A stretch of DNA of 46,426 nt from Candidatus Micrarchaeota archaeon (GTDB lineage: Archaea; Micrarchaeota; Micrarchaeia; Norongarragalinales; UBA8480), in the NCBI GenBank assembly GCA_043805855.1, contig JAZDHP010000010.1:1-46426 (forward strand), in the 5' to 3' direction. The notes under the pieces are model-generated. The model did not search any database. It was not told the DNA's origin and saw only the letters and a program-made list of their open reading frames with translations. This document shows positions 4,054 to 44,051 of this stretch, one piece after another (positions within the stretch are counted from its first letter, which is position 1; each line of letters opens with the position of its first letter). The translations under genes and the position numbers were made by a program.

Positions 4054-4785
4054 TTACCATCCGTAGATTTTTTCAATTGCTTTTTCTAGTAGGATTTTCA
4101 GCACGATTGCTTCGTCTTCGCTTATTGGAAGCGCAACGCTGTTCAATTTACCATCTTGTCCCTGGGTTGACAATTTAAAGTAGTAGCCGGTTTGCATTTT
4201 GGAAAATGAAACAGTTGAGTTGCGCGTGTCGCTGGACACGGCATAGCCGCCTTTCGATGGGTCGTGGAACAATTCGATTGTTGGCAATTTTCCGCTAAGT
4301 ACAACGAGCAACTTTGCAATGTCGGTTACTGCCATTTTGAAAGATAATTTTGTGCTCCAGTCAAAGCTTTGTGGTGCATTTGAGCATCGAGCTTCGCTCG
4401 ATGACTCAGACACAAGCTCGCGAGCTTGTGCTGATTGCTTTGCTGCTTCGACAAATACGCTTTTCTTTTCTACATTAAAGTCAAACTGCACTGCTGAGCC
4501 GTTGCCGTTTTTGTTCGGCTTGTAAATTTTAAATTTCTTATCAAAATTAGACGGTGCAGATTGCGGTTGGTAAGTTTGAGTTGTTTGGGTTGGGTTTGGC
4601 CGCGGTGCAGTTGTAACCTGTGTTGTTGGTTTTTGTGGTATTGGGGTACTGATAGTTTGCGTTGGTTTAGTTTGCGGCGTTTGTGTCGCTTGCATTGGCT
4701 TAGCTGGCATAGGCTGTGGCGTTGCAAGTTGTTTATTGAATTGGTTTAGTGTTGGTTGTATTTTATTTGCTGGTTTCGTTTCCAT
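4054..4785 (-). CDS. Whirly-like putative ssDNA-binding protein with Q/T/P-rich N-terminal linker
   Basis: FDWSTKLSF..AVTDI...ELFHDPSKG...GYYFKLS...LPISEDE...YGW parallels the plant Whirly signature; GGTGA RBS before ATG 4785. Confidence 0.65.
   Translation of the reverse strand: METKPANKIQPTLNQFNKQLATPQPMPAKPMQATQTPQTKPTQTISTPIPQKPTTQVTTAPRPNPTQTTQTYQPQSAPSNFDKKFKIYKPNKNGNGSAVQFDFNVEKKSVFVEAAKQSAQARELVSESSSEARCSNAPQSFDWSTKLSFKMAVTDIAKLLVVLSGKLPTIELFHDPSKGGYAVSSDTRNSTVSFSKMQTGYYFKLSTQGQDGKLNSVALPISEDEAIVLKILLEKAIEKIYGW
4381..4434. repeat. 54-nt in-frame twin-hairpin insertion in the Whirly-like CDS
   Basis: Perfect 20-bp palindrome CACAAGCTCGCGAGCTTGTG (4411-4430) plus hairpin CATCGAGC-TTC-GCTCGATG (4385-4403). 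Confidence 0.7.
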
Positions 4786-13932: not shown

Positions 13933-14087
13933 TATACTTTAATGTCAAAAGGGTTTTTTACCCGTACGTCGCTTTTATTTACGCACTTTATTGCTTTAGG
14001 TTTTCGAGCCACGGGTCTCGAAGGCCTGCGGCGATTGAGCGGCCTTTGTGGGGTCATAGTACAACCTGGTAGTATATTAGGCTCCAG

Positions 14088-14145
14088 TCATATGGAGCAC
14101 AGAGAACCGCTAGAAATAGTTGTTCAATGATGAACTGTTGAAGAA
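14088..14145 (+). ncRNA. tRNA-Trp canonical intron encoding a box C/D guide for Cm34
   Basis: Guide TGGAGC is antisense to GCUCCA, followed by A and D-like box CAGA (N+5 lands on C34). GAAC/GTTC stem and box C ATGATGA at 14127-14133. Confidence 0.75.
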
Positions 14146-14166
14146 ACCTAAGGATCGGGGTTCAAA

Positions 14167-14299
14167 TGCCCATCTTTTCTCTTTTTGCGAAAAGAGAAAA
14201 GCTAGGCGCTCCAAAAGAGAAAAGGCGAAGTTGCTTTTTCTTTTGGCGCCACGCCTGGCACCTTTTCTTTTCGTAAAAGAAAAGGGGCATGGCTGAAAA
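14167..14299 (+). other. 133-nt non-canonical tRNA intron at 59/60 with strict BHB and three hairpins
   Basis: Central helix TTCA/TGAA, AAT bulges on both sides, outer helices GGGG/CCCC and GCC/GGC; hairpins at 14174-14201, 14205-14250 and 14261-14285. Confidence 0.85.
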
Positions 14300-14343
14300 T
14301 CCCCGCGACCCCACTTTTTATTTTTTTCTTTATTTTGCTTAGT

Positions 14344-27782: not shown

Positions 27783-28949
27783 GTGGGAGTTTTACTTGAA
27801 AAGATAAAAGATGGCAAAATAATTGTAACCGACGCGTCGAGCGTTGGCTCGCTGTTAAAAGGGTTTTTCGGAAGCCAGTACGGTGAGAACAAATCTAAAA
27901 TACAACTAATGCCAGAAGAAGCGCTGTATCTTTCAGATGTGCGTAACGCCGTGTGTACAGACAATAATGTTCCAATTACTTTTAACGAGTTAGCTGCGCC
28001 TTTCAAAGACCAAGAAAAATTTCTTGCAAGATATTTTTGTTACCGTGACTGGCGTGACCGTGCGTTAATTGCACGGGATATGAGCGAAGCTGAAGATACT
28101 AACTATGGCCGCTCGCCAGTTGTCAAATATCCTTCGCAGGATTTAGTTGTACCTCAAGTCAAGAGCAAGGCGCTGTACTTTCCCGACGATTTAATGGCGG
28201 TCATGGACGACGATGAAGAAGGCCGTTCACTTTACGACGGCTATTGGCTTGGACAGTACGGCACTTACAAAGCGAAAAAACACGGCCGCTTACTTAAGCT
28301 AGACGCTTATGAGTGTCTATTCCTCGCAAAGCACGGAAAGATGAAACTCGATATTTCTCCGACGAAATTGCTCCGCGAGGCAAAAAAGCGCCGCAATGAC
28401 TTCGAAGCGCTGTACGACGTTTACGAAGATTTACGCCTGCGTGGTTTCGTGTTGAAAACTGGGTTTAAGTTCGGAACACACTTTCGTTTGTACTTCCCCG
28501 GCGCAAAGCCATCGCTTGACCAAGCAGAGTGGATGCACTCGAAGCACGTTATCCACGTTTTTCCACGCGACGCAAAGATGCTAATTTCAGAGTGGGCGCG
28601 CGCAATTAGAGTGGCGCACGGGGTGAAGAAAACTTTCATCTTGGCAATTCCAGGGAGAAAGCGCGAGTCAAAAGCTAAACTTGATTTCTTACTTTACCAC
28701 CGGAAGCACGGCAACGCGGAGAATCCAAAGGAACACAAACCGAAGTTCGTAATGCTGGCGTTGAGTGAAGAGGAGGAAATCGGCGGACAAGAATTGGCGC
28801 AGGCTATAGTGAGAGCAAAAGACTTAGGTCTCGACTTGATTTTAAGTATCTGCGACCGCGAGACAAGCATAACGCACTATCGTGTTAAACGTATTGAACT
28901 GCCAAAAAGTCAATACGAATACTATGAGATTGAGTGGGTACAACCATGA
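27783..28949 (+). CDS. endA: tRNA-splicing endonuclease, three-unit epsilon2 (ARMAN) type
   Basis: 388 aa; EEALYL unit; catalytic unit KTGFKFGTHFRLY...HSKH...RVAHGVKK; ARMAN-specific-loop-like GQYGTYKAKKHG. Confidence 0.92.
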   Translation: MGVLLEKIKDGKIIVTDASSVGSLLKGFFGSQYGENKSKIQLMPEEALYLSDVRNAVCTDNNVPITFNELAAPFKDQEKFLARYFCYRDWRDRALIARDMSEAEDTNYGRSPVVKYPSQDLVVPQVKSKALYFPDDLMAVMDDDEEGRSLYDGYWLGQYGTYKAKKHGRLLKLDAYECLFLAKHGKMKLDISPTKLLREAKKRRNDFEALYDVYEDLRLRGFVLKTGFKFGTHFRLYFPGAKPSLDQAEWMHSKHVIHVFPRDAKMLISEWARAIRVAHGVKKTFILAIPGRKRESKAKLDFLLYHRKHGNAENPKEHKPKFVMLALSEEEEIGGQELAQAIVRAKDLGLDLILSICDRETSITHYRVKRIELPKSQYEYYEIEWVQP

Positions 28950-29050
28950 TTAGCTTAGATTTACTTAAAGGTTTCTTTTTTCATCGATGTTTTTTCTTTG
29001 TGAAAGAAAAAAGATCGGAGTATTATGAGATTGAGTGGGTGCAACCTTAA
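28917..29050 (+). repeat. 33-nt direct repeat of the endA 3' end (28917-28949 and 29018-29050) flanking a T/A hairpin
   Basis: GAATACTATGAGATTGAGTGGGTACAACCATGA versus GAGTATTATGAGATTGAGTGGGTGCAACCTTAA; both encode EYYEIEWVQP-stop. Confidence 0.9.
28946..29050 (+). CDS. Possible 34-aa peptide ending in the EndA C-terminal decapeptide
   Basis: MISLDLLKGFFFHRCFFFVKEKRSEYYEIEWVQP; ATGA overlap with endA and TAATG overlap with the next gene. Confidence 0.3.
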   Translation: MISLDLLKGFFFHRCFFFVKEKRSEYYEIEWVQP

Positions 29051-43912: not shown

Positions 43913-44051
43913 TGGGCCTACTGAGAATCGAATACCTGAACCAATCCTTTTTCTTTTCTGCTGAAAGGCTTTTCTTTTTAATAAAAAGAAAAGGGTTTCT
44001 CAGGGTTTCCTCCGTGTGAGGGAGGCGTCTTAGCCACTCGACTATAGGCCC
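43913..44051 (-). tRNA. tRNA-Val(CAC) with a 66-nt intron at 53/54; exons 44051-43999 and 43932-43913
   Basis: GGGCCTA/TAGGCCC acceptor stem, CCTCC/GGAGG anticodon stem, CAC at 44018-44016; T-arm CTGAG-TTCGATT-CTCAG is restored after intron removal. Confidence 0.9.
43933..43998 (-). other. Non-canonical tRNA intron (53/54) with BHB and T/A-rich hairpin
   Basis: Helix CCTG/CAGG, bulges AG|A and TA|T, helix AACC/GGTT; hairpin CTTTTCTTTTT-ATT-AAAAAGAAAAG. Confidence 0.85.

Follow-up and report, generated by a model that had tools for sequence, protein, structure and literature searches.

The stretch of DNA examined here, called the window throughout, comprises 46,426 nucleotides (nt) of contig JAZDHP010000010.1 from a Candidatus Micrarchaeota archaeon (assembly GCA_043805855.1, G000 below; 1,031,631 bases in 67 contigs, 92% complete). 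It carries two interrupted transfer RNA (tRNA) genes, tRNA-Val(CAC) and tRNA-Trp(CCA), and between them a gene for an epsilon2-type tRNA splicing endonuclease (Table 1). Our subject is the single intron of the valine gene and the family of hairpin cassettes to which it belongs. The intron, 66 nt long, interrupts the gene at 53/54, the junction of T stem and T loop, and its deletion fuses ...CTGAG with TTCGATT... (TTCGATTCTCAG). The intron-deleted sequence is called tRNA-Val(cac) by ARAGORN and scores 22 in our own cloverleaf finder, with 7/7 acceptor pairs, 5/5 pairs in both the anticodon stem and the T stem, and the loop TTCGATT; moving the intron by a single base breaks this T loop, which makes the intron boundaries unambiguous. 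Around the splice sites lies a motif of the bulge-helix-bulge (BHB) type made of a CCTG/CAGG helix, a 5' bulge AG/A (the slash marking the cut), an inner helix AACC/GGTT, and a 3' site TA/T. Our BHB scan scored it as H 4/4, inner helix 4, outer helix 0, that is, as a relaxed and not a strict BHB. The initial annotation, made from the letters of the window, had reported a 66-nt intron with a BHB at this position and within it an 11-base-pair (bp) hairpin with an ATT loop; both are present, on the minus strand. In total, these features are those expected of an archaeal protein-spliced (BHB) tRNA intron.

Table 1. Coordinates of the features discussed (window positions unless a genome and contig are named)
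Feature	Position	Strand or orientation	Evidence
tRNA-Val(CAC) gene, positions 1-72 (G1 at 44051), single intron	43914..44051	-	ARAGORN after intron removal; own cloverleaf finder
Exon 1 of tRNA-Val(CAC), tRNA positions 1-53	43999..44051	-	
Val intron, 66 nt, at 53/54	43933..43998	-	
Exon 2 of tRNA-Val(CAC), tRNA positions 54-72	43914..43932	-	
CCTG (positions 48-51), exon strand of 4-bp central BHB helix	44001..44004	-	BHB scan, H 4/4
CAGG, intron strand of central BHB helix, then TA/T 3' splice bulge	43935..43938	-	
Pyrimidine arm CTTTTCTTTTT of Val module	43983..43993	-	
Purine arm AAAAAGAAAAG of Val module, Watson-Crick paired with pyrimidine arm; ATT loop, 43980-43982	43969..43979	-	
Linker CCTTTCAGC of Val module, 9 nt	43960-43968	-	
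Third purine run AGAAAAGAAAAAGGA of Val module, contains exact mirror of purine arm	43945..43959	-	
tRNA-Trp(CCA) gene; 58-nt intron at 37/38 (14088-14145), 133-nt intron at 59/60 (14167-14299)	14050..14312	+	
Forward module in Trp 59/60 intron, hairpin 1 plus purine run	14174..14225	+	
Reverse-oriented module in Trp 59/60 intron, GGCCAGGCGTGGCC-linker subfamily (hairpin 3)	14234..14285	-	
Epsilon2-type tRNA splicing endonuclease gene, 388 amino acids	27783..28949	+	PF01974; 4fz2_A
Reverse-oriented module, 22 nt past endonuclease stop codon	28972..29012	-	
Stop-codon-adjacent modules elsewhere in the genome	G000:C8:553, C9:36480, C31:11576, C40:20729, C64:12339	forward	

Within the Val intron, the hairpin CTTTTCTTTTT-ATT-AAAAAGAAAAG is followed by AGAAAAGAAAAAGG. 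The initial annotation took the last of these stretches for a decayed second arm. It is instead a third purine run that holds GAAAAGAAAAA, an exact mirror copy of the 11-nt purine arm (mirror 11 of 11, direct 7 of 7), and it is neither a copy of the purine arm nor a complement, decayed or otherwise, of the pyrimidine arm. The same order of parts recurs across the genome: cassettes of 40 to 50 nt (modules) consist of a pyrimidine arm, a short loop, a complementary purine arm, a linker of 3 to 16 nt, and a mirror purine run, with stems of 8 to 13 nt, a first loop of 0 to 4 nt, and a second loop, the linker, that in the Val module measures 9 nt. The linker is often itself a mini-hairpin, for example, GGCCA-GGCG-TGGCC or CC-TT-GG, which would fold the third run back alongside the purine arm.

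The mirror rule was assessed on the 73 hairpins of this genome that have a purine run within 20 nt. A perfect mirror match is found in 55 of the 73 and a perfect direct match in 7, 6 of which are mirror-symmetric as well; when the third runs were dealt randomly among the modules, 2000 trials averaged 17.8 perfect mirrors and never exceeded 28. By longest common substring, the 73 modules, with their 30 distinct arm types, divide into 55 that favor the mirror, 16 ties, and 2 that favor the direct copy. In arms made of two blocks, a mirror is indistinguishable from a phase-shifted repeat. Each of the four arm types made of three blocks, (1,3,5), (1,3,4), (2,3,4), and (3,4,2), is mirrored, and direct repeats shifted in phase are thereby excluded. 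The rule extends beyond this genome. Among 22 modules of relatives, at loci fetched irrespective of their third run, 14 favor the mirror, 8 are ties, and none is direct; when matched patterns, built on arms of 3 and 4 adenines, were run against 61 genomes of the order, the mirror form turned up at 22 places in 16 genomes and the direct form at 2 places, both of which also match the mirror. In a sample of 201 genomes from across the phylum, 37 contain the hairpin-plus-run pattern, with linker subfamilies that differ between lineages; in this sample the pattern was not found in two large families (0/56 and 0/36), and a reversed, non-complemented control pattern was found in 0 of the 201.

How common is such a structure in the genome at large? 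If only perfect hairpins are counted, 8 bp or longer and with one arm all pyrimidine and the other all purine, the whole assembly contains 83 at 54 loci, compared with 1 to 15 in 15 Markov-resampled genomes (order 1, 3, and 5). Many contigs end at copies of the cassette, as is expected of repeats. In the window, CTTTTCTTTT occurs 9 times against 1.09 expected, a number reached by 0 of 100 shuffles. Five single copies of CTTTTCTTTT lie outside the tRNA genes, at window positions 4460, 8294, 25080, 32438, and 43700, none of them in a hairpin of 8 bp or more.

A census of tRNA genes called for tools that tolerate such introns. ARAGORN finds 0 tRNAs in the intact window; over the genome it finds 3 without its intron option and 10 to 11 with it, and with the Rfam tRNA model there are 19 matches up to an E value of 10, 5 of them above its cut-off. 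At the Val locus, Rfam gives 0 matches at the gathering threshold, and at a relaxed threshold a tRNA-model match of 21.5 bits (cut-off 29), confined to the uninterrupted 5' part of the gene, together with chance-level matches of small RNA and microRNA models to the hairpin. With its intron option, ARAGORN run on BHB-spliced candidates made many false calls in low-complexity DNA, and we wrote a stricter finder that applies a cloverleaf grammar over DNA and may skip any BHB-compatible interval. At the 54 hairpin loci this finder solved 26 tRNA genes with 51 introns, including one gene (contig 60) whose anticodon is uncertain, and reading the unsolved loci by eye added 13 tRNA genes with approximate splice sites and 1 contig-end duplicate of one of these. 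The 54 loci thus comprise 40 tRNA genes, 9 modules elsewhere, and 5 plain hairpins without other module features. Four more tRNA genes, taken from ARAGORN or Rfam, lack such a hairpin, so that it is carried by at least 39 of at least 43 recognized tRNA genes, a share biased upward because the census began from hairpin loci.

The tRNA introns hold 58 of the 73 modules and the tRNA flanks 4, with the other 11 lying elsewhere; within tRNA genes modules occupy the D loop, 29/30, 37/38, 53/54, 56/57, 58/59, and 59/60. Introns here are mostly 57 to 133 nt long. A module is present in 33 of the 51 introns of the 26 script-solved genes, in 19 of the 20 solved introns at 59/60, and in all 4 at 53/54, 56/57, and 58/59. 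The solved introns sum to 3,473 nt and the DNA without long open frames to about 86 kb; modules thus number about 10 per kb of intron and about 0.2 per kb of other DNA without long open frames. The enrichment in tRNA introns over other DNA that the initial annotation proposed to look for is therefore present, in the share of loci that are tRNA genes, in the share of introns that carry a module, and in density.

The census also brought to light features of a different kind. tRNA-Ala(CGC) at G000:C53:5695-5825 apparently has C in place of the near-universal U at position 33, and for this reason the strict finder missed it. A second element, of about 52 nt with two perfect hairpins in the frame TCAGC...TCTGAGTC...GCTC, sits inside the linker of three modules, at G000:C45:23349-23500, in the 59/60 intron of tRNA-Ser(GGA) (C8:9549-9848), and in the first intron of tRNA-Leu(CAA) (C56:2240-2360). 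A second family of shared introns, without the pyrimidine/purine hairpin, is GC-rich, about 55 to 66 nt long, and built from GGCC-type stems; its members, in the D-loop introns of tRNA-Ser(TGA) and tRNA-Val(TAC) and the 37/38 introns of tRNA-Gln(CTG) and tRNA-Gln(TTG), are 77 to 78% identical across different tRNAs and positions.

Modules in tRNA introns are strongly oriented. Their rows in our list number 52 forward (pyrimidine arm first in the transcript) and 6 reverse, or 51 and 5 after removal of two artefacts, one in which exon sequence had served as the "third run" and one in which a palindromic hairpin had been read on its other strand. Five intergenic modules lie 1 to 9 nt past the stop codon of an open frame of 141 to 421 codons on the same strand, and all five are forward. 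Three of these five frames share very similar ends (...AAGTAYSRGTAAG), which could be either paralogous gene ends or flank copied along with the module. Further modules stand in tRNA trailers, and one follows a C/D-box-like small RNA. At this last site (G000:C63:10300-10570), the small RNA has ATGATGA and CTGA boxes, two of each, and the module after it is succeeded by a long purine-rich repetitive stretch. When transcribed, a reverse copy gives one purine and two pyrimidine strands, which is the pyrimidine-motif arrangement. The orientation bias argues for a constraint on RNA or on transcription.

A first line of evidence for movement comes from pairs of introns that resemble each other far more than do the tRNAs that carry them. 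The 59/60 introns of tRNA-Gln(TTG) and tRNA-Ser(GCT) are 95% identical with tRNA bodies 55% identical; for the introns of tRNA-Tyr(GTA) and tRNA-Lys(TTT) the figures are 90% and 58%, and for those of tRNA-Ile(GAT) and tRNA-Ser(TGA), 89% and 53%. Related introns also sit at different positions, as in tRNA-Ile(GAT) at 37/38 and tRNA-Ser(GCT) at 29/30 (82% identity) or in the D loop of tRNA-Gln(TTG) and at 29/30 of tRNA-Ser(GCT) (79%). The closest paralogue of the Val module is in the 53/54 intron of tRNA-Pro(GGG), with 87% identity over 52 nt; as a whole, the Val intron reaches at most 71% global identity to other introns.

A second line of evidence comes from the Val(CAC) genes of relatives, whose synteny was checked for G002 and in part for G005. 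In the congener G002, the gene lies between homologues of both window neighbors and is thus syntenic, and its intron, 132 nt long, is at 59/60 and belongs to the subfamily seen here in tRNA-Trp. The Val(CAC) genes of G005, G006, G009, and G016 are intronless, and that of the more distant relative G021 has a 78-nt intron at 59/60. That the intron is elsewhere or missing in relatives implies that cassettes spread and turn over. Reverse copies, turnover, and repeat-like contig breaks argue for copying at the level of DNA, and a constraint on the RNA may hold at the same time. The copies very probably spread through duplication or insertion at the DNA level, and were gained and lost rapidly. The idea that one hairpin family colonized both tRNAs of the window, and so moves between tRNAs, had been put forward in the initial annotation; it is supported by these comparisons, and the family proves far wider than two tRNAs.

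The duplications at two tRNA genes may bear on how such introns grow. In tRNA-Ile(GAT) (G000:C9:30760-30880) and in tRNA-Pro(TGG) (G000:C32:6090-6230), the 3' exon (positions 60 to 73) and the trailer are duplicated, with a reverse GGCCAGGCGTGGCC-type module between the copies. These arrangements look like intermediates toward the two-module 59/60 introns of tRNA-Trp and tRNA-Cys.

The tRNA-Trp(CCA) gene of the window lies 29.6 kb from the Val gene and bears the hairpin CCTTTTCTTTT-CGT-AAAAGAAAAGG; its 59/60 intron holds three hairpins of the same kind. The third had been described as a near match of the Val hairpin. A like hairpin is indeed present there, but it belongs to another linker subfamily and has the opposite orientation. 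The further observation that the insertion positions of the two genes differ, and that the BHB-forming flanks match each gene's own exons, stands. The 37/38 intron of the same gene has no hairpin module. It contains ATGATGA, which resembles a box C/C', and TGGAGC, complementary to anticodon-loop nucleotides 31 to 36, followed by CAGA; if CAGA serves as a D' box, C34 would fall at the fifth paired position, an arrangement known from the intron-encoded C/D guide of euryarchaeal tRNA-Trp. A clear box D is missing from the intron, and Rfam does not match it.

The window also encodes the enzyme that would be expected to cut the cassette introns. The 388-residue protein matches Pfam tRNA_int_endo with 78.5 bits and, over its full length, the structure of the epsilon2 EndA of ARMAN-2 (E 9.1e-131). 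Enzymes of the epsilon2 type cleave strict and relaxed BHB motifs, including a 59/60 intron, as described in the text of PMC3239211, and this broad specificity would account for the tolerance of insertions with minimal BHB flanks. The endonuclease gene has a module of its own downstream, in reverse orientation. A second copy of the gene's final 33 nt (EYYEIEWVQP plus stop, 28917-28949) stands at 29018-29050, with the module between. The two copies show 5 differences, all at synonymous third-codon positions, one of which changes the stop from TGA to TAA; synonymous-only differences would not be expected of a second copy that was free, non-coding DNA. Import of the second copy from a diverged relative is one possible reason, and constraint on both copies is another. 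We also considered a BHB intron in the endonuclease messenger RNA (mRNA) as the source of the duplicated 3' end and found no convincing BHB at the equivalent positions.

In total, the observations outlined above make it likely that the Val intron is one copy of a multiplied mirror-run cassette family. According to this proposed history, the family would have multiplied in a ~1-Mb genome of the DPANN/Micrarchaeota type and in many of its relatives, its copies settling where they do no harm: mainly in tRNA introns that the endonuclease can excise, and also 1 to 9 nt past stop codons and in tRNA trailers. Short flanks particular to each intron, complementary to the neighboring exon, would supply the BHB, the cassette would be the portable part, and nearly the whole body of the Val intron would be one cassette. 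What, then, would the mirror rule be for? We posit, as a proposal to which we give slightly less than an even chance, that it is due to an intrastrand purine-motif triple helix of the three strands, with A·A-T/U and G·G-C triads and the third strand antiparallel to the purine arm. Such a triplex could form in RNA or in single-stranded DNA, and the orientation bias would favor RNA. A strict purine/pyrimidine split between the arms is needed for a triplex and is unnecessary for a hairpin. We further speculate, in a combined proposal that we hold to be unlikely, that the cassette is both an RNA purine-motif triplex and a portable intron body, one that creates and moves tRNA introns, since a few exon-complementary edge bases would suffice for removal by the epsilon2 endonuclease, and that protects RNA 3' ends past stop codons.

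Several observations weigh against these proposals. On the side of the cassette family, the Val intron lacks an outer BHB helix, the census share is inflated as noted, and several isoacceptors (e.g., Asn and Phe) were not identified in a census that started from hairpins. Target repeats flank only 3 of the 73 copies, and these repeats, seen at the endonuclease gene, tRNA-Ile, and tRNA-Pro, are long, with exact cores of 16 to 17 nt in repeats of 33 to 41 nt, compared with at most 11 nt in 300 random controls; Pfam Y1_Tnp (IS200/IS605-type) was not found in the 92%-complete genome in a search limited to that transposase family; the conjunction of terminal inverted repeats, short target-site duplications, and a cognate transposase by which a transposase-driven element like a miniature inverted-repeat transposable element would be recognized is thus not what we find. 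On the side of the triplex, evidence for RNA purine-motif triplexes is mixed in the text of PMC7583470, second loops of 7 to 16 nt exceed the 1 to 6 nt of the bacterial intrastrand triplex definition, and the Val intron alone folds no better than its shuffles (z 0.06). The main rival of the triplex is an ordinary two-state hairpin, in which the third run offers the pyrimidine arm a second choice of Watson-Crick partner and the RNA acts as a switch, or as a long-range helix that joins the intron ends for the BHB. Exactly this pairing, by Watson-Crick and G-U pairs, appears in the minimum-energy ViennaRNA fold of the Val pre-tRNA, a calculation that knows only these pairs and no base triples; it is possible there because the Val arms are near-symmetric, and where arms are near-symmetric a two-state hairpin accounts for the sequence no less well than a triplex. 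In 21 of the 73 modules the third run equals or surpasses the purine arm in pairing with the pyrimidine arm, and in many introns the short flanks outside the cassette pair with each other. Nonetheless, we consider a purely bistable hairpin quite unlikely. One would expect an arm that competes for this pairing to repeat the purine arm directly, yet where the arms are asymmetric the third run loses complementarity and keeps its mirror identity, the 22 mirror places in the 61 genomes have no exclusively direct counterpart, and the mean duplex energy of the pyrimidine arm is weaker with the third run (-6.2 kcal/mol) than with the purine arm (-9.2 kcal/mol).

Two other explanations do without any copying of cassettes. 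Could the similarity among introns reflect selection, the cassette being a vertically inherited functional RNA element, required in pre-tRNAs and at mRNA 3' ends, such as a protein-binding or exonuclease-blocking structure or an insulator against mispairing of intron and exon? The orientation bias in introns and past stop codons, and an architecture that stays constant over many families while its sequence varies, are what such an element would show. The linkers and whole introns up to 95% identical between unrelated tRNAs are not, nor are orthologous Val genes with the intron elsewhere or lacking, reverse copies, lineage-specific linker subfamilies, and contig breaks at copies, and we regard this explanation as very unlikely in its pure form; function and mobility of the cassette are not mutually exclusive. 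It could also be asked whether the hairpins are independent low-complexity A/T-rich runs that arose by chance or slippage, with neither common descent nor selection. The arms are indeed simple, of the (A4G)n kind, the two-block arms carry the ambiguity between mirror and phase-shifted repeat, and the fold of the Val intron is no better than that of shuffled sequence, but the resampling, reversed-pattern, and shuffle controls already contradict this account, the linkers that copies share are not simple, and three-block arms are mirrored as well; we find it scarcely credible.

How does such a family compare with systems already described? One close counterpart is found in ARMAN-2 (Candidatus Micrarchaeum acidiphilum), in which non-canonical BHB introns are cut by an epsilon2 enzyme (Fujishima et al. 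2011, PMC3239211). As far as the text of that paper goes, the two share the enzyme type, introns at 53/54 and 59/60, relaxed BHB motifs, and several introns per gene, and the ARMAN-2 tRNA-Pro(GGG) has introns at both 53/54 and 59/60. The assayed ARMAN-2 introns are short, at 13 and 25 nt, in contrast to introns made of a repeated cassette here, and the text of PMC3239211 contains the words "hairpin" and "purine" 0 times and mentions no shared intron sequence. Shared tRNA introns of the Thermoproteales have been read as products of DNA-level transposition, the mechanism of which is not known (PMC4090602). As described there, near-identical introns in unrelated tRNA bodies, at differing positions and missing in orthologues, resemble what we see, while phylum and endonuclease type differ, and the unit here is a defined hairpin plus mirror run; the cassette, unlike the Thermoproteales introns, also stands past stop codons and in trailers and recurs in 37 of the 201 genomes of its phylum. 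For Asgard archaea, a 2026 preprint (10.64898/2026.10.13.758758) found no general arrival route for tRNA introns.

The architecture has a closer counterpart in bacteria. TMECO, a G/C-rich class II intrastrand triplex motif, forms a DNA triplex by circular dichroism and nuclear magnetic resonance and is linked to local genome variability (Holder et al. 2015, PMC4666352). The ITxF search of that paper defines intrastrand triplex motifs by stems of 6 to 15 nt and loops of 1 to 6 nt; the stems and the first loops of the cassette fit these limits, whereas its second loops are often longer than 6 nt. According to the text of PMC4666352, the order of the class II motifs (PIT/TMECO) is that of the cassette, namely, 5' pyrimidine stem, loop, purine stem, loop, and mirror purine stem, and in TMECO the second purine stem is the reverse-Hoogsteen strand. 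Cassette and PIT/TMECO are likewise abundant, patchy among relatives, intergenic, and tied to local genome variability, and in both the complementary strand belongs to the pyrimidine-motif class. TMECO (CCCTCNCCC...) is bacterial and has a 3-nt second loop, and the word "tRNA" occurs 0 times in the text of that paper; the cassette is A/T-rich and archaeal, has second loops that are often mini-hairpins, sits mostly inside tRNA introns, and is strongly oriented. A broader comparison is with H-DNA, the homopurine/homopyrimidine mirror repeats that have been tied to stalled polymerases and to instability of the genome (review PMC11667243). Together, the cassette's purine arm and third run make up a homopurine mirror repeat of this sort, and instability of the H-DNA type would fit, by analogy, the turnover and flanking duplications described above; unlike classical H-DNA, the cassette has short arms of 8 to 13 nt and an inverted repeat, and the fold expected is one of a single strand and not of a supercoiled duplex. 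We found no published description of the cassette in literature searches with reading confined to openly accessible papers.

The origin and movement of archaeal tRNA introns are an open question, and what this genome offers is a moving unit that is physically defined and abundant: a cassette of about 45 nt with triple-helix-like covariation and a transcribed orientation, present in nearly every recognized tRNA gene and recurring across the phylum. The mirror rule, the near-saturation of the tRNA gene set, and the orientation bias are its most striking properties. There is a practical consequence as well, in that standard finders overlook almost all tRNA genes here and the cassette is a good flag for hidden ones. 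If the three strands do form a triplex in RNA, it would be the first natural all-RNA purine-motif triple helix and would add a second, purine-motif class to the natural RNA triple helices. If the cassette is also a portable intron body, the creation and movement of tRNA introns in these DPANN archaea would be the work of triplex cassettes, and the same fold past stop codons would shield RNA 3' ends.

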